Origin: Bacilli bacterium
GTDB taxonomy: Bacteria; Bacillota_I; Bacilli_A; RF39; UBA660
Length of the DNA stretch: 64,000 nucleotides
Direction of reading: 5' to 3'
Assembly: GCA_050948865.1 (NCBI GenBank)
Contig: JBMNEQ010000002.1
Span: 131,943-195,942, forward strand
The position numbers and the translations under genes were made by a program. A model generated the notes under the pieces. It worked only from the letters and a program-made list of their open reading frames with translations. It was not told the origin of the DNA and ran no database searches. Of this stretch, positions 16,929 through 56,685 are shown piece after piece. Position 1 is the stretch's first letter; the number at the start of each line of letters is the position of its first letter.

Positions 16929-16975
16929 TCTTTTTTATTGGAAAAAGTTACCAACAAAAATACCTCGTAAAACCT

Positions 16976-17004
16976 TGACAGACAATATCTTAGGTGCTAT
17001 CTTG
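16976..17004 (+). promoter_or_regulatory. sigma-A-type promoter (TTGACA-N17-TATCTT) upstream of the pilin-like gene
   Basis: cTTGACAgacaatatcttaggtgcTATCTT, then RBS ggaggaattaaggtATG. Confidence 0.4.
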
Positions 17005-17023
17005 AAAGTGGAGGAATTAAGGT

Positions 17024-18061
17024 ATGAAAGTTTTATTTAAGAAGCTAAAACAAGGTTTTACATTAATTGAATTACTCGCGGTAATTATAATTTTAGGGGT
17101 AATTATTGCTATAACAGTTCCTACTATTAAAGGAGTAATAAAAAATTCAACCAAAGAAGCATTTTTAGTTGATGCTAAAAATGTAATAAAAGCAGTTGAT
17201 TATTATTTAATAGATGAGGAAGAACCTTCTTTACTAGAAACTTTAAAAGTATCATCATTAGAAGATATGTTAAAGATAAGTGGTTCTAATTATCTTAGTA
17301 TAGATATCTCATTTGATCGATATTTAAATCCTTTTATAAAGTTGGTAGGTAAAGATAAATGGGAAGGTTTAACTGCTTGTGGAACTTCTAATGATTTAGA
17401 AGTAGGATCTGATATAGATTGTGAAGTTCTTCCTTTTCCAGCAATACTTCCTGATGGACAGTTATGTGGTAGTGTATTTTATGATTTTAGGGATGGTAAT
17501 AAATATAAGACAGTTCAAATAGGAAAACAGTGTTGGTTTGGGGAAAATTTAAGGTATACGGGAAGTGGTTGTTTAAATAATAAATGGGATTCTGAAAAAT
17601 ATAATGCTTGCCGAATTCATACTAAAAAGGACTGTCAGGGTACAAATTCTAATTATTATTGTAGTTGGTCTGGTAGTGAAGTTTTATATCAATGGGGAGT
17701 AGTGGAAAAAGATAATAATGAACAGGATTTATGTCCTGCTGGTTGGCATGTTTCTTCTAAAAAGGAATGGGAGGATTTAATTACCTTTTTAGGAGATAAT
17801 GCTGGGGATAAAATTAAATCAAAACTTAAATGGAATGGTTCTAATGAGGCTTTATTTAATGCTTTTCCTATTGGAGATCGGATAGAAGGTTCCCTTTTTA
17901 ATGTTGGAACTTTTGCTTATTGGTGGACTTCAACAACATTTCTTGATTCAAATGTTTGGTATTATTATATTTATACGGATAATAGTAATATTAATTTTAT
18001 AGCGGATGATGTATTAGATTTTGGTTACTCAGTCCGTTGTGTTTTAAATAGTGAAATTTAA
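17024..18061 (+). CDS. type IV prepilin-like N-terminus fused to a Fibrobacter-succinogenes-major-paralogous (FISUMP) domain
   Basis: Class III signal KQGFTLIELLAVIIILGVIIAI (G|FTLIELL with Glu5). The C-terminus carries QCWFGENL...YQWG...CPAGWHVSSKKEWEDL...AYWWTST...YSVRCV, which matches the Fib_succ_major domain. Confidence 0.6.
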   Translation: MKVLFKKLKQGFTLIELLAVIIILGVIIAITVPTIKGVIKNSTKEAFLVDAKNVIKAVDYYLIDEEEPSLLETLKVSSLEDMLKISGSNYLSIDISFDRYLNPFIKLVGKDKWEGLTACGTSNDLEVGSDIDCEVLPFPAILPDGQLCGSVFYDFRDGNKYKTVQIGKQCWFGENLRYTGSGCLNNKWDSEKYNACRIHTKKDCQGTNSNYYCSWSGSEVLYQWGVVEKDNNEQDLCPAGWHVSSKKEWEDLITFLGDNAGDKIKSKLKWNGSNEALFNAFPIGDRIEGSLFNVGTFAYWWTSTTFLDSNVWYYYIYTDNSNINFIADDVLDFGYSVRCVLNSEI

Positions 18062-18078
18062 GAAGGAGGAATTAAGGT

Positions 18079-19207
18079 ATGAAAGGTTTATTTAAGAAGC
18101 TAAAACAGGGTTTTACATTAATTATAATTATTCGCAGTAATTATAATTTTAGGGGTAATTATTGCGATAACGGTTCCTACTATTAAAGGAGTAATAAAAA
18201 ATTCAACCAAAGAAGCATTTTTAGTTGATGCTAAAAATGTAATAAAAGCAGTTGATTTTTATATGCTTGATGAAGAAGAACCTTCTTTACTAGAAACTTT
18301 AAAAGTATCATCATTAGAAGATATGTTAAAGATAAGTGATTCTAATTATCTTAGTATAGATATCTCATTTGATCGATATTTAAATCCTTTTATAAAGTTG
18401 GTAGGTAAAGATAAATGGGAAGGTTTAACTGCTTGTGGAACTTCTAATGATTTAAAAATAGGATCTGATATAGATTGTGAAGTTCCTCCTTTTCCAGCAA
18501 TACTTCCTGATGGACAGTTATGTGGCAGTATATTTTATGATTTTAGGGATGGTAATAAATATAAGACAGTTCAAATAGGAAAACAGTGTTGGTTTGGGGA
18601 AAATCTAAGGTATACGGGAAGTGGTTGTTTGGTAGAACCACCAGAAGAATGGTTAAATAGTTTGACTGCATGTACATTTATTACGAGAAAGGATATAATT
18701 AATACTTCTTCTAATTTTCCATGGTTAATTGGGGAAATATTGTATCAATGGGGTGCAGCAATGGATGGTGGTAATGAAGGTGCGAGAGGATTATGTCCTG
18801 TTGGTTGGCATATACCAACTGATAAAGAATGGGTGAAATTAGAGAGTTTTGTTGATTCTAAAGTTGAATGTGATGAAAACTTTTTTCTTAATTCATATTA
18901 TAATAGAGGATTTGATGTAGGTAAAAAATTAAAAGCTAAAACTACAAAATGGATATTTAATAATAATGGTAATGGTGATGATAGTTTTGGATTTAGGGCT
19001 ATTCCTGCTGGTTTTCGTGGTTCTTATGGTTATGTTGGTTTTGGTGGTATGACAGCTTATTTTTGGACTTCCTCATTTTCTATAGAAAATCCTAATGAAA
19101 TTTTGTATCGCTCGATAGATGCTAATTTTGATACTGTTGGTAGATTTTCTTCTTCTGAATTAGATTTATATGGTTTATCTCTTCGTTGTCTTTTAAATGA
19201 AGAATAA
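18079..19207 (+). pseudogene. frameshifted tandem paralog of the pilin-FISUMP gene; the intact downstream ORF is 18263..19207
   Basis: The first ~185 nt are ~95% identical to 17024 onward, including the RBS. A +1 insertion near 18125..18131 breaks the frame (MKGLFKKLKQGFTLIIIIRSNYNF...stop). The downstream frame then encodes a diverged FISUMP domain (GFRAIPAGFRGSYGYVGFGGMTAYFWTSS...SLRCLLNE). Confidence 0.5.
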
Positions 19208-19232
19208 ATTTATTTATAAATAATTAAATTTA

Positions 19233-19270
19233 AAAACATCTAATTAATGTATAATTTAGATGTTTTTTTA
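19233..19270 (+). terminator. rho-independent terminator after the pilin-FISUMP pair
   Basis: aaacatcta...tagatgttttttt. Confidence 0.55.
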
Positions 19271-19284
19271 ATATAATATAAAAT

Positions 19285-19311
19285 ATAGCACTCTCTACTT
19301 GACAATGCTAA
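19285..19311 (+). promoter_or_regulatory. CIRCE-like HrcA operator (aTAGCACTC-N9-cAaTGCTAA)
   Basis: Left half matches 8/9 and right half 7/9 to TTAGCACTC-N9-GAGTGCTAA. It overlaps the hrcA promoter. Confidence 0.55.
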
Positions 19312-19327
19312 AAGTTCTTATTATAAT
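19299..19327 (+). promoter_or_regulatory. consensus sigma-A promoter TTGACA-N17-TATAAT of the hrcA-grpE-dnaK operon
   Basis: ttgacaatgctaaaagttcttattataat. Confidence 0.65.
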
Positions 19328-19357
19328 GGTATTGAATTTCCTTGGAAGGAGAAAAAT

Positions 19358-41749: not shown

Positions 41750-42298
41750 ATGGAAATTTATATAGTTATTGGAATCGTTGCTTTATTATTAATTTATACA
41801 TTTATTGTTTATAATAATTTAATAAAATTAAGCAACAAAATTAAAGAGGCATTTGCAACGATGGATGTTTATTTAAAGAAAAGATGGGATTTAATTCCTA
41901 ATATTGTTGAAATTGTTAAAGGCTATGCAAAACATGAAAAGGATACCTTAGAAAAGGTTATTAATTTAAGAAATGATGCTTATGACAAAATGAGTATAAA
42001 TGATAAAATTGATACCAATGAGAAATTAACAGCGGGCATTTCAAAATTAATGATGTTAGTTGAAAGTTATCCAGATTTAAAAGCAAATCAAAACTTTTTA
42101 GATTTGAGTTTGCAATTATCTAAAGTGGAAGAAGATATTGCTAATTCGAGAAAATATTATAATGCTGTCGTTAGAAATATGAATGATAAAGTACAAATGT
42201 TTCCAAGTAATATTTTTGCTAGTTTATTTGGGTTTAAAGAAAATAAATTCTTTGAAGTAAGTAATTCTGAAAGAGAAAATATTAAGGTAAAATTATAA
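41750..42298 (+). CDS. lemA: LemA family membrane protein
   Basis: N-terminal TM plus LemA domain (NNLIKLSNKIKEAFATMDVYLKKRWDLIPN). Confidence 0.85.
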   Translation: MEIYIVIGIVALLLIYTFIVYNNLIKLSNKIKEAFATMDVYLKKRWDLIPNIVEIVKGYAKHEKDTLEKVINLRNDAYDKMSINDKIDTNEKLTAGISKLMMLVESYPDLKANQNFLDLSLQLSKVEEDIANSRKYYNAVVRNMNDKVQMFPSNIFASLFGFKENKFFEVSNSERENIKVKL

Positions 42299-44766
42299 TG
42301 AATAAGTATAGGTTATTTCTAACGAGTATATTTCTTTTTCTTTTTTTGGTTATTTTACCAATCAAGGTAGAAGCTTTAAGTTATAAAAGTGATTTTGTTG
42401 ATTTAAAAAGTGATGTTGTTTTTCAGACTGATGAATTTGAATTAGATTTAAAATATATTGAATTTGCTAATGAGATAATTGATAAACCAGCTGCCATAAC
42501 TGGTGAGGGAAGAAGAAAAATTAGTAATATATATTATTATCATTATGTAGTTTACTATTATAATGATCAAAAAGAAGAGATTGGGGCAACTGATGGTTAT
42601 AATGGGATATGGAATATGATTTCAGACTCAGCTGGTAGTTATCTAAGCAGTTTTTTAGAATCGAAAGATATGAAATTACCTTATAAACTGTCAGATATTA
42701 AATATTATAAATTATTTATTGAACCATCTACAAAAGAAATGGTTGATAATTATAACTATGAAAATTATAAAAAAATTAATATGAATGGACTTGATCCAAT
42801 TACTGATTTTAATACAATAGAGATGAAGATTGGTGAAAAGATTATAACTTCTAATGAAAGTAATAATGACAATATTAATAATTATATAAATACTTATGGA
42901 AATGGTGAATATGCATTAACAAAATATAAAATAGATATTAAGGTCAATGAAAATAATACATTTAATATAACAGAATTTATAACAGCTTATTTTAATGTAG
43001 AGAAGCATGGAATTTTTAGAAAAATACCATTAAGAAATAAAGTTGTTAGATTAGATGGTACAAAAAGTAATAATCGTGCCAAAATAAGTGATATAAGAGT
43101 TAATGAACAATCTATTACATATAATGAGTTGGGTTATCAAGTTATAAAAATTGGTGATCCTAATTCTATTTCAATTGGTAGCAAAGATTATGTAATTAAT
43201 TATTTATATAACATTGGAAAAGATACTGGTAAAGGGTATGATGAATTTTATTTTAATTTAATAGGTTATGAATGGGATACAACGATTAGTAATGTAGAAT
43301 TTACTATAACTATGCCAAAAGAGTTTGATAAAACAAAATTAGGTTTTTCAAGTGGTGTTGTTGGCTCGCTAAATACTAATAATATAGAATATAATGTTGA
43401 TGGTAATGTAATAAAAGGTAGATATAATGGTGTTTTAGATGTAGGTGAATCATTAACAGTAAGATTAGAACTTCCGGAAGGTTATTTTGTTGGCTCTAGT
43501 GATAATTTTGCTCTAATGATAATTATATTATTTGTTTTGCCAATTGCCTTTGCTATTATTTCATTCTTATTATGGGTTAAATATGGTAAAGATGATAAAG
43601 TTATTGAAACAGTAGAATTTTATCCTCCAGAAGGTTTTAATAGTGCGGAAGTTGGCTTTTTATATAAAGGTCAAGTTGATGAGAAAGATGTAGTTTCATT
43701 ATTAATATATTTAGCGAACAAGGGATATATAAGGATAGAAGAATCAGAAGAAAAGTCTCTATTCTCTACTAAAAAAGGTTTTAAGATAATAAAAATGAAA
43801 GAGTATGATGGGAATAATATAAATGAAAAAGTATTCCTAAAGGGATTATTTAATACAAAAAGAAGTAGCATAACTTCAGCGATTAAGTTAATGAAGGATA
43901 TGAAAAATTCTAAGCAAGAGGTTACAGATGAAAATAATTCACAATCAAAATTAGAAGAAGTTACAGCAATTGATTTGTATGATAGTTTTTATGTTATATT
44001 AAAGGTTATTGTGGAAAATCTAAACGATAAAGAAAACAAAGATAAAATATTTGAAAAATCAACATCTGGTAAATCGATAGCTGTTATTTTAATGATAATT
44101 ATATCTGTATTTATTATAATTGGTATTCCTACTTTGGAATATTCTGGTGTTGGTGAATTAGGGATGACATTGTTTATAACTTTATTTTATATTCCATTCT
44201 ATGCTGTTATTTTTATTAAAAAGATGCCACTAATAATTAGATTACTCTGGGGAGGTTTTACAATTTTTCATTCTATTATGTTTTTTAGTGTGTTTCCAAT
44301 AAGAGAAGCATTGTTTGATAATTCTATTTTATTATTAGGCTTTTTAGTTGGTTTAGTTTGCATAATTTTTATGATTATCTGTTTTAAAGCAATGCCTAAA
44401 AGAACTCCTTATGGAAACGAAATATTAGGTAAGATAAAAGGGTTTAGAAATTTCTTGGAAACAGCAGAAAAACCTAAACTAGAAGAATTAGTAATGCAAA
44501 ATCCACTTTATTTTTATAATATATTGCCATTTACTTATGTATTGGGTGTGTCTGATAAATGGATTAAAAAATTTGAAACAATAAGTTTACAAGAACCTGA
44601 TTGGTATGGTGGAAGTGCAGCATTTAGTATGGCATCGTTTGGAAGTTTTATGGATTCAACAATGTCTTCAGCTTCAAGCGCTATGTCATCTAGCTCTTCT
44701 AGTAGTAGTAGTGGTGGAGGATCATCAGGTGGTGGTTCAGGTGGTGGTGGGGGTGGTTCTTGGTAA
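42298..44766 (+). CDS. DUF2207-family membrane protein with a Gly/Ser-rich C-terminal tail
   Basis: Signal peptide, large extracytoplasmic domain, a TM cluster, and a terminal SSSSSSSGGGSSGGGSGGGGGGSW. The LemA-adjacent arrangement is classic. Confidence 0.7.
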   Translation: MNKYRLFLTSIFLFLFLVILPIKVEALSYKSDFVDLKSDVVFQTDEFELDLKYIEFANEIIDKPAAITGEGRRKISNIYYYHYVVYYYNDQKEEIGATDGYNGIWNMISDSAGSYLSSFLESKDMKLPYKLSDIKYYKLFIEPSTKEMVDNYNYENYKKINMNGLDPITDFNTIEMKIGEKIITSNESNNDNINNYINTYGNGEYALTKYKIDIKVNENNTFNITEFITAYFNVEKHGIFRKIPLRNKVVRLDGTKSNNRAKISDIRVNEQSITYNELGYQVIKIGDPNSISIGSKDYVINYLYNIGKDTGKGYDEFYFNLIGYEWDTTISNVEFTITMPKEFDKTKLGFSSGVVGSLNTNNIEYNVDGNVIKGRYNGVLDVGESLTVRLELPEGYFVGSSDNFALMIIILFVLPIAFAIISFLLWVKYGKDDKVIETVEFYPPEGFNSAEVGFLYKGQVDEKDVVSLLIYLANKGYIRIEESEEKSLFSTKKGFKIIKMKEYDGNNINEKVFLKGLFNTKRSSITSAIKLMKDMKNSKQEVTDENNSQSKLEEVTAIDLYDSFYVILKVIVENLNDKENKDKIFEKSTSGKSIAVILMIIISVFIIIGIPTLEYSGVGELGMTLFITLFYIPFYAVIFIKKMPLIIRLLWGGFTIFHSIMFFSVFPIREALFDNSILLLGFLVGLVCIIFMIICFKAMPKRTPYGNEILGKIKGFRNFLETAEKPKLEELVMQNPLYFYNILPFTYVLGVSDKWIKKFETISLQEPDWYGGSAAFSMASFGSFMDSTMSSASSAMSSSSSSSSSGGGSSGGGSGGGGGGSW

Positions 44767-45940: not shown

Positions 45941-47128
45941 TTATTTAATTTTATAATCACTTAGATTAAATGTTACATTATCAGGTTTTATGTAAGAGCA
46001 ATTTAATTTTTTTATAAAATTCGGATAAAGTTTTTTAGTTAATTCATATGGTGTCTTATTATCTAAACTTACTCTTGGAGTATTGTTTATGTTATTCTCA
46101 AGAAACTTCACTGTTTCATCAGTCAAATTTTCAAAAGATGTTCCTTTAGTAAAAACCTTTCTGATGTAATAGTGATTTTTTTCTATTTCTGCTTTTTGAT
46201 TTGATTGATAAGGATCACAATAAAACACATTACATATTTTTTTATTGTTTTTATAATCTCTTTCCATCATATCAGGATTGAAAAATTCTCCTCCATTGTC
46301 GGTCAAAATAATCCGTAAAACTTGAGCGTATAACTTAATACCAAGTGTGTCTTTTAAAAATACAAATTTATCATCTACTGATGCTATATTATTTTTATCT
46401 AATAAAAAAATCAACATAAACTTAGTTTTAATAATTAAAAGCGTTAATAATACTTTTGAATTACCTTGTTTTCCAATAACAGTATCCATTTGGGCAACGT
46501 TCATTCTAGGATGTATAGTTGTGAAAAGCAGATAATCGTTATAAGTTCTATTTTTTAGAATAGCTAATTCACGTCTATTTCTACGTTGATTTAATTTCCT
46601 TTTTTTGTATTTTACTTTTTTAGGTAAATCTAAATTTGTTAAAGACAAAGCGTTAATATCAATGTACTTATAAAAAGTTGTTTTGCTCATGCAAAGAATG
46701 TCTTTGTGGTTTGCAAATACTTGGTTAACACTTTGTTTTTTATCTTTTATAAGTGGAACTATTATTTCTTCTATTTCTTCAATCTCTTGAGGAGTGATAT
46801 CAATGCCTTCTCTTGTTGTACGAAGTTTAAGTTTATATAAATCGTATGCTATCTTAGCGTTATAGTAAAGCTTTTTTTTAGAGCATCCTCCTTTGGCTGA
46901 ACAATTATTACAAACATATGGAACTTTATTGAGTTTAGGACAATTTGATGTGTTTTCATTGTTGTTTGAATATTTAGAGTATCTATTTCTTTTTACTTCT
47001 TTAGCAATAGTGGTGCGATCCTTTTCAATTGTTTTTCCAATATCAGTAAATGTAACGTTTTTTCTTATTAAAATTTCTATAACATCTCTTTGTTCTTTAG
47101 TAAGATGATTGTAACTTGATTTTGCCAT
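45941..47128 (-). CDS. IS30-family transposase (HTH + Cys-rich linker + DDE)
   Basis: MAKSSYNHLTKEQRDVIEILIRKNVTFTDIG...DRTTIAKEVKRNR, with DDE region LTDNGGEF...IEKNH. The ATG at 47128 has an aaggaag SD. Confidence 0.85.
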   Translation of the reverse strand: MAKSSYNHLTKEQRDVIEILIRKNVTFTDIGKTIEKDRTTIAKEVKRNRYSKYSNNNENTSNCPKLNKVPYVCNNCSAKGGCSKKKLYYNAKIAYDLYKLKLRTTREGIDITPQEIEEIEEIIVPLIKDKKQSVNQVFANHKDILCMSKTTFYKYIDINALSLTNLDLPKKVKYKKRKLNQRRNRRELAILKNRTYNDYLLFTTIHPRMNVAQMDTVIGKQGNSKVLLTLLIIKTKFMLIFLLDKNNIASVDDKFVFLKDTLGIKLYAQVLRIILTDNGGEFFNPDMMERDYKNNKKICNVFYCDPYQSNQKAEIEKNHYYIRKVFTKGTSFENLTDETVKFLENNINNTPRVSLDNKTPYELTKKLYPNFIKKLNCSYIKPDNVTFNLSDYKIK

Positions 47129-47468
47129 TTTGACACTTCCTTTCATTAATGGCAAATAAACCAACATAGAATATAATATAACTAATTAATAAATATAGCA
47201 AAGTAAAATTCATTTCTAATAATTGATGAACTAAGTTTGATGGTTAAAATCCCTAAATTATTAAGTGATATGAATTTGCTCGTTTCTTGTTTGTTATATA
47301 TAATGAATTAGGAATTTAAAAAATAGGTTCTTAATAAAAACAGTTCTATTACAGATGATATTACTGATAAAGATTGGATTTAAGTCAAGTATTTAGACGC
47401 TTTTTTATAAACGTTTTAATTTATATTTAAATTTATTCCAATTTCCTTTATGATTTTAGGAACCCAAT

Positions 47469-55093: not shown

Positions 55094-56685
55094 GTAAGTT
55101 CCCGTTTATTATTAAAATGGGAATTTAACATTTTATATGATTATTTTAGTATAATAACTATTAAATTTGAATTGAAGTTGCTTTTATAGGAGGTAAAAAA
55201 TGAAAAAGCATCTTACAAAAGATTTAAGAGTTATTATTGAACAACTTTTAAACAATGGAATGAATTTTACTGAAATTAGTGATGCCATAAGATATGACAG
55301 AACTACCATTTCAAAAGAAATTAGAAAACACTTTTATAAAAAATGTCCTTCAAAATTTAACAACTGCACAAACTTGTGTATGAATAGGCATCTTTGCGGT
55401 AGTTTTGATTGCAGTAATAAAAAAGATTGTTATGAAGAGTTTATATGTGAATTTTTAAAAAAACCACCTTATGTATGTAATGCATGTGATAATAAAGCAA
55501 GATGTCGGAATATAAAACGTTATTATGATGGAGTAAAAGCCCATAATTCTTATTTAAAAACATTATCTTCTTCTCGAGAAGGCTTTCACATTAATAAACA
55601 AACCATTAATCTTATTAATAAAACTATTGTTCCTTTAATTAAAGAGAAAAAGCAAAGTATTAATCATATCTTCATAAATAATCCTAAAATTCTTTCTTTT
55701 TCTTTACCAAGTTTTTATTCTTATATTGATAATGGATTATTTGATCTACAAAACATGGATTTACTAAGAAAAGTTAGTTATAAAAAACGAAAGAAAAAGA
55801 AAAATAACAAAATAATTTTAAGCAATCACAGAATAAATAAGACTTATGATGATTATTTAAAATATATTAAAAAGAATCCTAATGCTTCAGTTGTTCAAAT
55901 GGATACTGTTGAAGGAAAGAAAGGAAAAAATGAAAAGGTTTTATTAACTCTGTTATTTTTAAAATCAAACGTCATGTTAATTTTTCTTTTAGATTCCAAC
56001 ACTAATTCAGCAGTTAACAAAGTTTTTGATAATATTAAAAGAGCTATAGGTATTGATAACTTTAAAATACTATTTGAAGTTATTTTAACTGATAATGGCT
56101 CAGAATTTATAAACTCTTCAATAATAGAAACAGACTTTGAAAAGAATAAAATTATTAATATCTTTTATTGCGATCCTTACGCCTCTTGGCAAAAAGGAGC
56201 TTTAGAAAAAAACCATGAGTTTATTAGATATTATTTAAGAAAAGGAATTTCTTTTAATTTTCTAAAACAAGAAGACTGTAATTTAATGTGTAATCACATT
56301 AATAGCACTTCTAGAAAAGAATTAAAAAATAAAACACCAATAGATATGTTTGAATACAAATATTTATTAGAAAAGTTAAATATTAATTTAATAAGCCCAA
56401 ACGAAGTTAATTTATCAAAAAATCTATTTAAAAAGTAATTTAATTTTAATAAATAAAGCAACTTCATATTCAAATTTTTTTAAAAAAATTTGAAATTAAA
56501 CGGGAATTTAACATTAAAATTTTAAAAAACATACCCTTTTAATCTTTTTAGTGTGCTTATATTTTTAAAAAAACTTCCTTTTCTACGTTATTATATTACT
56601 TTTTCTGTTTTTTTTCTATAAAAAAGTATAATTTTGACCTTTAAATCCAATACTTTCAGTTTTTACTAAACAAACGGGAACTTAC
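55094..56685 (+). mobile_element. IS30-family insertion sequence (copy B), about 1.59 kb
   Basis: Terminal inverted repeats GTAAGTTCCCGTTT at 55094 and AAACGGGAACTTAC at 56672..56685. Subterminal direct repeats aaa(t/c)gggaatttaacatt at 55113 and 56496. Confidence 0.65.
55200..56438 (+). CDS. IS30-family transposase (divergent paralog of the 45941..47128 transposase)
   Basis: HTH (FTEISDAIRYDRTTISKEIRKH), Cys-rich linker, and DDE region ILTDNGSEF. Roughly 40-50% identical to copy A. Confidence 0.85.
   Translation: MKKHLTKDLRVIIEQLLNNGMNFTEISDAIRYDRTTISKEIRKHFYKKCPSKFNNCTNLCMNRHLCGSFDCSNKKDCYEEFICEFLKKPPYVCNACDNKARCRNIKRYYDGVKAHNSYLKTLSSSREGFHINKQTINLINKTIVPLIKEKKQSINHIFINNPKILSFSLPSFYSYIDNGLFDLQNMDLLRKVSYKKRKKKKNNKIILSNHRINKTYDDYLKYIKKNPNASVVQMDTVEGKKGKNEKVLLTLLFLKSNVMLIFLLDSNTNSAVNKVFDNIKRAIGIDNFKILFEVILTDNGSEFINSSIIETDFEKNKIINIFYCDPYASWQKGALEKNHEFIRYYLRKGISFNFLKQEDCNLMCNHINSTSRKELKNKTPIDMFEYKYLLEKLNINLISPNEVNLSKNLFKK

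Follow-up and report, generated by a model that had tools for sequence, protein, structure and literature searches.

To our knowledge, FISUMP domains have no known ligand, and we know of no pilin combining an N_methyl segment with a FISUMP domain that has been studied experimentally. For the FISUMP domain, we take IPR011871 to be the corresponding entry. The architecture IPR012902-IPR011871 was listed as the fifth commonest among the 'modular pilins', with 40 proteins, and the authors assigned 'no clear function' to the FISUMP module (Raynaud et al., 2021, PNAS, PMC8179133). S. sanguinis assembles into its pili two modular pilins, PilB with a vWA module and PilC with a ConA-like lectin module (PMC8179133). 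A C-type-lectin fold is also found in DGR variable proteins such as TvpA of Treponema denticola, TaqVP, Mtd, and LdtA of Legionella. Wu et al. (2018, PMC5758913) placed DUF1566/DUF823/Fib_succ_major (CLec2) proteins in category 'd' of DGR targets and described MSL-containing DGRs of 'architecture D'. The CLec2 targets known so far are either lipoproteins or proteins exported via Sec. In Bacteroides, a retroelement varies the binding end of type V pilus adhesins, which are sorted as lipoproteins and assembled by strand exchange (bioRxiv 10.1101/2024.11.15.621889). For type IV pilins, we know of no account of DGR diversification beyond passing mentions in surveys.

Here, we analyzed a 64-kb stretch of DNA (the window) from an uncultured Bacilli lineage. 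The initial annotation had described two tandem genes on the same strand, each fusing a prepilin N-terminus to a FISUMP domain, and had considered this architecture unrecognized. Both open reading frames were confirmed (Table 1); the architecture, however, is already catalogued, and both Pfam domains (N_methyl and FISUMP) occur together in 43 of the best 120 database clusters. Gene 1 is thus a modular type IV pilin in the sense of Raynaud et al. (2021). Like PilB and PilC, it encodes a class III signal with a small pilin module, a short linker, and a C-terminal non-pilus binding domain, but the grafted domain is a FISUMP module with a C-type-lectin fold. Unlike modular pilins encoded in a pil operon, it belongs to a lineage-specific family with at least 11 paralogues dispersed over the genome, without the machinery nearby. 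By themselves, the two window genes are one more, half-dead example of a catalogued architecture and add little. Their value lies in the context, in which the FISUMP domain of these pilins acquires a structural identity, namely the C-type-lectin fold of the DGR-variable-protein type.

Table 1. Positions of the features of the two tandem genes, numbered from the first letter of the window.
Feature	Positions	Strand	Residues	Remarks
Promoter-like site 5' of gene 1	16975..17003	+		TTGACA, 17 nt, TATCTT; TG preceding the -10 hexamer; consensus scan, 10/12 matches
Shared 5' module, copy 1	17010..17574	+		RBS and gene 1 codons 1-184 (leader, pilin module, linker, first ~30 FISUMP residues to GSGCL); 96% nt identity to copy 2
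Gene 1, intact bimodular type IV pilin	17024..18061	+		345 aa
Gene 1 leader	17024-17056	+		MKVLFKKLKQG, then Phe1 and Glu5
Gene 1 alpha-1 helix			14-64	
Gene 1 pilin beta-sheet			~90-128	
Gene 1 FISUMP/C-type-lectin-fold module	17477-18046	+	~152-341	
Shared 5' module, copy 2	18065..18630	+		One extra base
Gene 2, disrupted start	18079..18186	+		ATG at 18079, stop at 18184-18186 after 35 codons; translation, alignment
Gene 2, residual leaderless ORF	18263..19207	+		314 aa; most of the pilin globular part and complete FISUMP
Gene 2 FISUMP, longer subtype with insertion	18533-19192	+	91-310 of the ORF	
AT-rich hairpin, then T run, 3' of gene 2	19232..19269	+		RNA fold -10.2 kcal/mol; z-score -3.6 vs shuffles

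An intact modular pilin and its decaying neighbor

In the gene 1 product, the N-terminus of a type IV prepilin is joined to a FISUMP domain. Its class III motif, in which the leader is followed by FTLIELLAV, contains Gly-1, Phe+1, and Glu+5, and the N-terminal segment matched PF07963 (N_methyl) with 28.1 bits (cut-off 21.2) and TIGR02532 (IV_pilin_GFxxxE) with 28.9 bits (cut-off 16.3); it is therefore not an ordinary Sec signal. The FISUMP domain was recognized by PF09603 with 83.7 bits (cut-off 33.9) and by TIGR02145 (Fib_succ_major) with 104.2 bits (cut-off 41.65). In the family alignment, residues F12, T13, L14, and E16 are invariant, and gene 1 keeps all invariant residues of the family. 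The AF2 model of the gene 1 product (pLDDT 86) consists of an N-terminal helix of 50 residues, followed by a beta-sheet and a second domain. The first two form the pilin fold, with a long alpha-1 helix on an antiparallel beta-sheet, and the C-terminal domain of the window proteins adopts the C-type-lectin fold of the kind seen in DGR targets. The FISUMP domain of gene 1 is a C-type-lectin-fold module, structurally akin to DGR variable proteins. The promoter-like site preceding gene 1 carries little evidential weight, as the count of such sites in the region did not exceed that in shuffled sequence.

The class III leader had been ascribed to both genes, which turned out to be correct for gene 1 only. 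In gene 2, an extra base at approximately position 18125 and a GAA to ATA change eliminate Glu5 and shift the frame, so that translation yields MKGLFKKLKQGFTLIIIIRSNYNFRGNYCDNGSYY followed by a stop codon; the ribosome-binding site and the ATG are retained. The residual open reading frame matched PF09603 with 101.7 bits and TIGR02145 with 105.5 bits (cut-offs 33.9 and 41.65) but neither PF07963 nor TIGR02532. The FISUMP matches extended over 2-175 of 176 and 1-186 of 187 model positions, and the hallmark motifs YQWG, CPxGWH, WTS, and S(V/L)RC were found in both products, as proposed in the initial annotation. An identical lesion is present in two further assemblies (ENA ERZ27247346 and JGI 3300061563). 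We rejected an assembly error as the source of the frameshift, since a MEGAHIT short-read assembly and a second JGI sample both show the same lesion. Phase variation through repeat slippage was likewise dismissed because four changes cluster at the site, which does not consist of a simple repeat; the absence of an intact allele from the protein database also disfavors it, no intact full-length orthologue of gene 2 being present among 5.8 billion database proteins. Gene 2 is a decaying tandem paralogue and, as regards the leader, a fixed pseudogene. With its leader destroyed, it could therefore be neither exported nor assembled as a pilin. The hairpin downstream of gene 2 is likely the terminator of a two-gene transcription unit, and the consensus scanner missed it because the stem is poor in G-C pairs.

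Paralogue mosaics and the DGR of sister genes

The two genes share a 5' module of 565 nt, which includes the ribosome-binding site GGAGGAATTAAGGT. Nucleotide identity between the copies is 96% (the initial annotation gave approximately 95%) and falls abruptly to ~47% on the 3' side (maximum chi-square 332). The module ends within the conserved QCWFGENLRYTG block, and the breakpoint is located 47 nt downstream of where the QCW motif begins. Breakpoints in four independent paralogue pairs lie 21-53 nt past this motif. Within pairs, the N-terminal parts show 96-98% nt identity, and all C-terminal parts 54-76%. The abrupt end of the module and the recurrence of the same breakpoint in other pairs thus indicate recombination or gene conversion. 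Furthermore, gene P0002 from another assembly joins an N-module of the L003 type to a C-module of the L001_d type. Judged from these alignments, the paralogues have a mosaic structure, with recombination at a single conserved junction, QCWFxENLRYTG. Across the 170 codons compared in the shared module, we counted 7 synonymous and 11 non-synonymous codon differences. The low number of synonymous changes is further evidence for recombination, and the excess of non-synonymous ones is compatible with relaxed constraint on gene 2.

The genome does contain further FISUMP cassettes: the N-methyl+FISUMP family comprises at least 11 genes at five places. Four paralogues possess GC-rich variable regions (VRs) at the extreme C-terminus that match the Asn-rich template repeat (TR) of an MSL-avd-TR-RT DGR. 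In two of these four, the TR-VR mismatches are essentially confined to TR adenines, with 17/37 at A versus 3/153 at other bases for P0004, and 12/36 versus 2/157 for P0008. The cassette target-MSL-bAvd-TR-RT was found at two loci, L004 and L003, the latter on the contig of the window genes; the DGR on this contig lies ~225 kb away from them. In their C-terminal VRs, Asn-rich TR, A-specific mismatches, and MSL-avd-TR-RT cassette, the sister paralogues resemble the DGR systems with C-type-lectin-fold variable proteins, although the carrier here is a type IV pilin.

The window genes, in contrast, have no TR match, no IMH-like end, and no between-sample variation. Neither TR gave a blastn match to them; in a forced alignment, identity was 56-60%, and all four bases were affected by mismatches. 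GGTCCGTTGCGTCCGGGAC and GCCCGTAGGGC, the IMH-like GC-rich end and the downstream hairpin, follow all four real VRs and are missing after both window genes. The GC content of the window gene tails is 29-31%, that of the real VRs and the TR 47-56%. On sequence grounds, the window genes are not current targets of the DGR, whereas sister paralogues on the same contig are. We also considered that the window tails might be decayed copies of the same TR; homology is visible at the protein level, but the sequences are too diverged for more. A likeness of this kind is DNSNIN in gene 1 versus GNSNVN in the TR peptide.

Over three independent assemblies, the tail of gene 1 was 99.8% identical (1 change in 461 nt) and that of gene 2 100% identical. 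Chimeric or variant copies of gene 1 or gene 2 were detected neither in the three metagenome assemblies nor in the protein database. The C-terminal halves, described as hypervariable in the initial annotation, are therefore divergent rather than hypervariable. Since the window copies are invariant between samples and have no TR match, nothing indicates that antigenic or adhesin variation is ongoing here. For the family, with its mosaics and DGR-targeted sisters, the proposed diversification of a surface-displayed binding domain is broadly right. Some paralogues appear to have damaged features, namely VR frameshifts in P0004, a nonsense codon in the avd gene of L003, and the loss of the leader in L001_b. 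The 1-nt 'deletions' observed at TR-adenine positions in the assembly may be a consensus artefact of adenine-site polymorphism in the VRs. The paralogue at positions 8919-9911 of L001 has lost the GFTLIE motif and retains only a hydrophobic N-terminus, which suggests that the class III signal may be dispensable for some family members.

Genomic context and pilus machinery

The initial annotation had noted the lack of pilus-biogenesis genes nearby, and we found none in the 64-kb window when all open reading frames were read by eye and ten were scanned with Pfam. The window contains housekeeping, sporulation, and IS30-like genes, and the class III motif, searched for in all six frames, occurred in gene 1 only. 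T2SSE, T2SSF, and Peptidase_A24 were absent around P0010, P0013, P0004, P0008, P0018, P0037, and P0102. A gene for a prepilin peptidase, an assembly ATPase, or a platform protein was found neither in the ~20-kb loci (~80 kb) at four further paralogue sites in this genome or sample nor in three related loci. A regular expression for the T2SSE Walker A motif had no match in 1.29 Mb of scanned DNA. Altogether, the search for machinery covered the window, the paralogue loci, and 1.29 Mb of loci, the host contig being 788 kb in size. As no pilus machinery occurs in the DNA examined, we infer rather than observe the assembly of a filament. In the loci examined, the family genes are single or in tandem, scattered among housekeeping operons and never beside pilus genes. 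The host is a spore former, as previously noted, with SpoVAC, SpoVAD, and SpoVT encoded in the window and SpoIVA and CotH elsewhere on the contig.

Proposed mechanism and alternatives

With a probability of roughly 0.6, we propose that gene 1 encodes a modular FISUMP-tipped pilin, that gene 2 is decaying, and that the family is recombining and partly written by a DGR. A prepilin peptidase would cut the gene 1 product after Gly-1, and the helix would insert the protein into a type IV filament, either a pilus or a Com-like pseudopilus. There, it would most likely be a minor or tip subunit with the lectin-fold module serving as a ligand-binding (adhesin) head. Recombination or gene conversion at QCWFxENLRYTG would homogenize neighboring 5' pilin modules and reshuffle the 3' lectin cassettes, and mutagenic retrohoming by the DGR would act on the last ~190 nt in a subset of paralogues located elsewhere. 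The window genes would take part in the recombination process but not in the current DGR process.

The class III signal might instead serve only for peptidase processing and for anchoring in the membrane or in a pseudopilus stub, so that the FISUMP paralogues would form a ligand-capture layer through the wall. An analogue would be the 'bindosome' of Sulfolobus, whose sugar-binding proteins have prepilin-like signals. The dispersal of the family genes in housekeeping operons, never adjoining pilus genes, would suit such a surface anchor, as would the many paralogues in each genome, an uncommon number for tip pilins, and the paralogue that swapped its pilin leader for a plain hydrophobic anchor. 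We nevertheless regard this as unlikely, because the whole family conserves the alpha-1 helix, Glu5, and the pilin-fold domain, and Glu5 is a feature of filament assembly rather than of anchoring. Moreover, the S. sanguinis pilins PilB and PilC, built to the same design, go into pili (PMC8179133). Another possibility is that both genes are decaying remnants of a once-active family without present function, as might be suggested by the broken gene 2, the apparently damaged features of other paralogues (the P0004 VR, the L003 avd gene, and the L001_b leader), and the preponderance of non-synonymous over synonymous differences in the shared module (11 vs 7). This is improbable, as gene 1 has all invariant residues, a full-length open reading frame, a ribosome-binding site, a promoter-like site, and a high-confidence model, and is conserved in three samples, with a single change in 461 nt.

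Neighboring copies in which a conserved 5' pilin part precedes divergent 3' cassettes, gene conversion within the family, and one copy that is not expressible as a pilin recall pilE/pilS of Neisseria. By this comparison, gene 1 would be the expression locus and gene 2 a silent donor, and conversion of the cassette would switch the adhesin specificity. Gene 2 is indeed silent for export, yet its FISUMP domain is complete and HMM-perfect; both genes have the 565-nt homology block ending at the conserved junction, and the mosaicism across the family attests to such exchanges on evolutionary time scales. However, the 'silent' copy is a single one, and it is a frameshifted full-length gene with a ribosome-binding site and an ATG rather than a promoterless, 5'-truncated cassette like pilS. 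A 3' homology block to resolve the conversion is missing because the tails differ, and genes 1 and 2 are the same in three metagenome assemblies, in which neither a chimera nor population variation was detected; a switch of this type is very improbable. Finally, the C-termini of the window genes could be VRs written from a TR, given that fold and family are those of proven targets and that a DGR lies ~225 kb off on the contig; DGRs can act on remote targets >100 kb away (PMC5758913). This would be hard to reconcile with the missing TR match, the mismatches at all four bases in the forced alignment, and AT-rich tails (29-31% GC) without the GGTCCGTTGCGTCCGGGAC end and the GC hairpin. In addition, the divergence extends, with indels, across the whole ~160-codon half and not merely the last ~63 codons. 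A second tail copy, an RT, and an avd gene are absent from the window, no second tail copy was found in the other loci examined, and the tails are invariant (99.8% and 100%) in three samples. We consider hidden DGR targets extremely improbable.

Within the favored reading of gene 1 as a FISUMP-tipped pilin, the pilin-lectin fusion makes up, in a single uncultured lineage of spore-forming Bacilli, a large multigene family that recombines and has some members written by a DGR. One may tentatively go further and envisage two tiers of adhesin diversification acting on the type IV filaments of a Gram-positive spore former, although we hold this to be doubtful. In some pilin paralogues, the lectin-fold tip would be hypermutated by a DGR of the Legionella type (MSL-avd-TR-RT). 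Recombination at QCWFxENLRYTG would then carry evolved lectin cassettes to other pilin carriers, among them 'fixed' copies independent of the DGR (for example, gene 1) and silent reservoirs (for example, gene 2). If the proteins reside on type IV filaments, this would amount to retroelement-driven adhesin evolution on monoderm type IV pili, paralleling the type V pili of Bacteroides. The parallel concerns the sister paralogues only and links a type IV pilin of a monoderm spore former to a system from another phylum.

Among the GTDB species representatives, we found no close relative, the top match having 39% identity in the FISUMP domain only. A syntenic contig from a Bacilli MAG encodes a 125-aa stand-alone pilin and no pilus machinery. 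In related MAGs, the pilin module of the family is fused, in keeping with the idea of modular pilins, to other adhesin-type domains (PF16403, PF09479, and LRR_5).

Architecture and presumed role of the gene 1 product

The product of gene 1 matched PF07963 N_methyl (28.1 bits; cut-off 21.2), TIGR02532 (28.9 bits; cut-off 16.3), PF09603 Fib_succ_major (83.7 bits; cut-off 33.9), and TIGR02145 FISUMP (104.2 bits; cut-off 41.65), in agreement with the initial annotation, and the gene 2 ORF matched the FISUMP models only (101.7 and 105.5 bits). The AlphaFold2 model of gene 1, built from an alignment of 35 family members (mean pLDDT 86), comprises a helix (14-64), a small beta-sheet (90-128), and then a second mixed domain; a Foldseek search with this model revealed no significant match in the PDB. 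Together, the HMM matches and the model identify a bimodular protein, in which a type IV pilin module is followed by a predicted C-type-lectin-fold module as in the variable proteins of diversity-generating retroelements (DGRs). We take IPR011871 to be the FISUMP entry. The fusion, unrecognised in the initial annotation, is not new: IPR012902-IPR011871, with 40 proteins, ranks fifth in frequency among the catalogued modular-pilin architectures, and its extra domain is described as having no clear function (Raynaud et al., 2021; PMC8179133).

By analogy with characterised modular pilins, the gene 1 product would most likely be processed by prepilin peptidase and displayed on a type IV filament, where the lectin-fold module would form the binding head. 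The main rival, a bindosome-like surface anchor for the same product, appears unlikely to us. No gene for a prepilin peptidase, ATPase, or platform protein was found in the window or in the paralogue and related loci read, which cover a minor part of the genome; within these limits, the reported absence of nearby pilus biogenesis genes holds.

The tandem locus and the lesion in gene 2

The window corresponds to ~332-396 kb of the 787,845-bp contig Ga0534105_00077 (JGI 3300053716; MAG 'Bacilli bacterium') and has a G+C content of 25-26%. A spore-forming host is supported by SpoVAC, SpoVAD, and SpoVT, encoded in the window, and by SpoIVA and CotH, encoded at other sites of the contig. A polysaccharide-deacetylase-like gene lies on one side of the gene pair and the hrcA-grpE-dnaK operon on the other. 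The sigma-70 promoter upstream of hrcA is a perfect consensus (TTGACA, 17 nt, TATAAT); an imperfect inverted repeat of the CIRCE type, TAGCACTC-N9-CAATGCTAA, overlaps it and is the operator at which HrcA would be expected to control the hrcA-grpE-dnaK-dnaJ operon. Two mutually diverged IS30-like transposase genes (HTH_38; weak rve match in one) flank mutL, miaA, lspA, and rluD, and a DUF2207 membrane protein gene lies immediately 3' of a LemA-like gene, a commonly conserved pair.

Coordinates of the features and distribution of family members (L001-L004, paralogue loci of the same genome or sample, with their own coordinates)
Feature	Position	Strand	Size or number	Remark
Gene 1 ORF	window 17024-18061	same as gene 2	345 aa	
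Gene 2 residual ORF	window 18263-19207	same as gene 1	314 aa	
Shared 5' block	window 17010-17574 and 18065-18630			
Promoter-like site	window 16975-17003			brackets gene pair with hairpin
AT-rich hairpin and T-run	window 19232-19269			brackets gene pair with promoter-like site
hrcA promoter	window 19285-19330			
DUF2207 gene	window 42298-44766		822 aa	
IS30-like transposase gene	window 45941-47167	-		
IS30-like transposase gene	window 55200-56438	+		
Family members	window		2	
Family members	L001, window contig		3	one without GFTLIE motif
Family members	L002, window contig		4	tandem
Family member	L003, window contig		1	directly 3' of rplQ
Family member	L004, contig _00645 of same sample		1	
Complete DGR	L003 10001-13656			window contig ~122.3-126.0 kb
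Complete DGR	L004 10001-13656			Ga0534105_00645
Cognate variable region	L003 10901-11086			
Cognate variable region	L004 10897-11085			

Alignment of both genes confirmed the near-identical 5' module, which begins at the ribosome-binding site GGAGGAATTAAGGT, 14 nt 5' of each ATG, and stops after GGAAGTGGTTGTTT at codon 184. The best breakpoint (maximum chi-square 332) separates a left part with 96% identity from a right part with 47%. A prepilin leader had been assigned to both genes; in a six-frame motif search, the class III signal was detected in gene 1 only, whose N-terminus is MKVLFKKLKQG followed by FTLIELLAVIIILG. From its ATG at 18079, gene 2 translates to MKGLFKKLKQGFTLIIIIRSNYNFRGNYCDNGSYY and then reaches a stop at 18184-18186. 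The lesion comprises one extra base at ~18124-18125, a change of the Glu5 codon from GAA to ATA, and two more substitutions within 22 nt; Glu5 is lost regardless of which base is counted as the insertion. The ORF from 18263 is the rest of gene 2 in the +1 frame. The frameshift is real: both ERZ27247346, an ENA assembly of short reads, and a second JGI metagenome (3300061563) reproduce it base for base. Among 5.8 billion proteins, no full-length gene 2 orthologue was found, only the truncated 314-aa form. Unable to work as a pilin, gene 2 may have become a pseudogene; that it serves as a silent cassette is less likely.

The divergent 3' parts ("tails") had been described as hypervariable. They are not: across three assemblies, identity was 99.8% for the gene 1 tail (461 nt) and 100% for that of gene 2 (552 nt). 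Divergence between the genes covers the entire ~160-codon half, indels included, rather than only the last ~63 codons, and no second copy of either tail occurred in the window or the paralogue and related loci examined. We also rejected both genes as DGR targets. Neither tail gave a blastn match to the two template repeats (TRs) of the sister DGRs; forced alignment yielded 56-60% identity with mismatches at all four bases; the G+C content of the tails is low (29-31%); and both lack the hairpin and the IMH-like GC-rich 3' end of a variable region (VR). The window contains no reverse transcriptase or avd gene, and none was tied to the tails in the loci searched. Thus, the locus is neither hypervariable nor DGR-targeted; it comprises one member and a dead copy of a known, catalogued kind. 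Overall, the initial observation was confirmed in part, and its interpretation was supported in part.

The family and its probable recombination

At least 11 members occur at five places in this genome or sample. In one 330-aa paralogue (L001 8919-9911), the pilin globular part and FISUMP are kept, and a plain hydrophobic N-terminus, MKRNGFKKILLFILILFILIIIIF, replaces the class III motif GFTLIE; the product may be exported or anchored by a different route. N_methyl and FISUMP Pfam domains occurred together in 43 of the 120 best database clusters, and full-length matches extended to MAGs of Gammaproteobacteria and Patescibacteria. In related MAGs, the same pilin module is joined to other adhesin-type domains (PF16403, PF09479, LRR_5). 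In one related MAG, another modular pilin (L089 18805-21122; >841 aa, N_methyl, LRR_5, and Glug) lies ~8 kb from the pilin-FISUMP gene. In the GTDB MAG 'Bacilli bacterium STF1_271', whiA and parA enclose a stand-alone pilin gene (L064 3915-4292; 125 aa) with the family N-module and no grafted domain; this contig shares synteny (lgt, whiA, parAB, abgT, ychF) with L004. At L003, L004, the related loci L088 and L089, and the window, the pilin-FISUMP genes recurrently lie directly 3' of housekeeping operons, behind rplQ, ychF, rpoC, or uppP, or between ezrA-deacetylase genes and hrcA; none is in a pilus operon.

The nucleotide identity matrices of the N- and C-terminal parts were incongruent. N-terminal identity reached 96% for gene 1/gene 2, 98% for L002_b/c, 96% for L001_d/L003, and 87% for L001_c/L004, and all C-terminal parts were 54-76% identical. 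The block shared by genes 1 and 2 has 7 synonymous and 11 non-synonymous codon differences in total over 170 codons, and the 3' half is saturated; this contrast reflects a recent common origin of the 5' block and not stronger selection. In four independent pairs, identity dropped 21-53 nt past the start of the QCW codons, within the nearly invariant block QCWFxENLRYTG, and a protein from another assembly (P0002) combines an L003-type N-module with an L001_d-type C-module. These sequences are best read as the outcome of repeated recombination or gene conversion, for which the conserved QCWFxENLRYTG junction is the putative crossover site. Diversification by gene conversion, as initially proposed, is supported at the junction across the family, gene 1/gene 2 included; ongoing variation is not supported for the window copies, which are stable in three assemblies.

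DGRs at sister paralogues

A more interesting lead than the window genes is provided by the DGR-targeted type IV pilin-lectin fusions of this spore-forming Bacilli lineage. Two paralogues, P0004 at L003 (same contig as the window, at a distance of ~225 kb) and P0008 at L004, each precede a cassette of a 108-aa MutS_I-like (MSL) gene, bAvd, a non-coding segment with a 190-nt TR, and an RVT_1 reverse transcriptase of 401 aa. The two DGR copies are 96.5% identical; avd has a premature stop in the L003 copy and is intact in L004. The TR is 89-93% identical to the 3'-terminal ~190 nt of the adjoining pilin gene, and the mismatches fall nearly all on TR adenines (17/37 A versus 3/153 other bases, and 12/36 versus 2/157, in the P0004 and P0008 pairs). 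It codes for an Asn-rich peptide (ARPAGYRNTSGTLNNVGYNANWWSSS...NSGNSNVNRNSNSQANGYSVRCVRD). The G+C content of TR and VRs is 47-56% versus 26% for the genome, and the VRs terminate in GGTCCGTTGCGTCCGGGAC, with a GC hairpin after them. Target-MSL-avd-TR-reverse transcriptase order and the Fib_succ_major/DUF1566-type VR fit 'architecture D' and target category 'd' of the Legionella type DGRs (Wu et al., 2018; PMC5758913). In the open-access literature searched, pilin-type DGR targets receive passing mentions only.

Two more paralogues, L001_c363 and L001_d361, carry older copies of the same VR type that have partly diverged, with 83% and 75% identity to the TR and mismatches also at non-A bases. 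The cognate VRs contain single-base deletions at TR adenine positions, which frameshift the called proteins P0004 and P0008. These deletions may not be real lesions; a heterogeneous population in the course of active diversification could have produced them as artefacts of the consensus.
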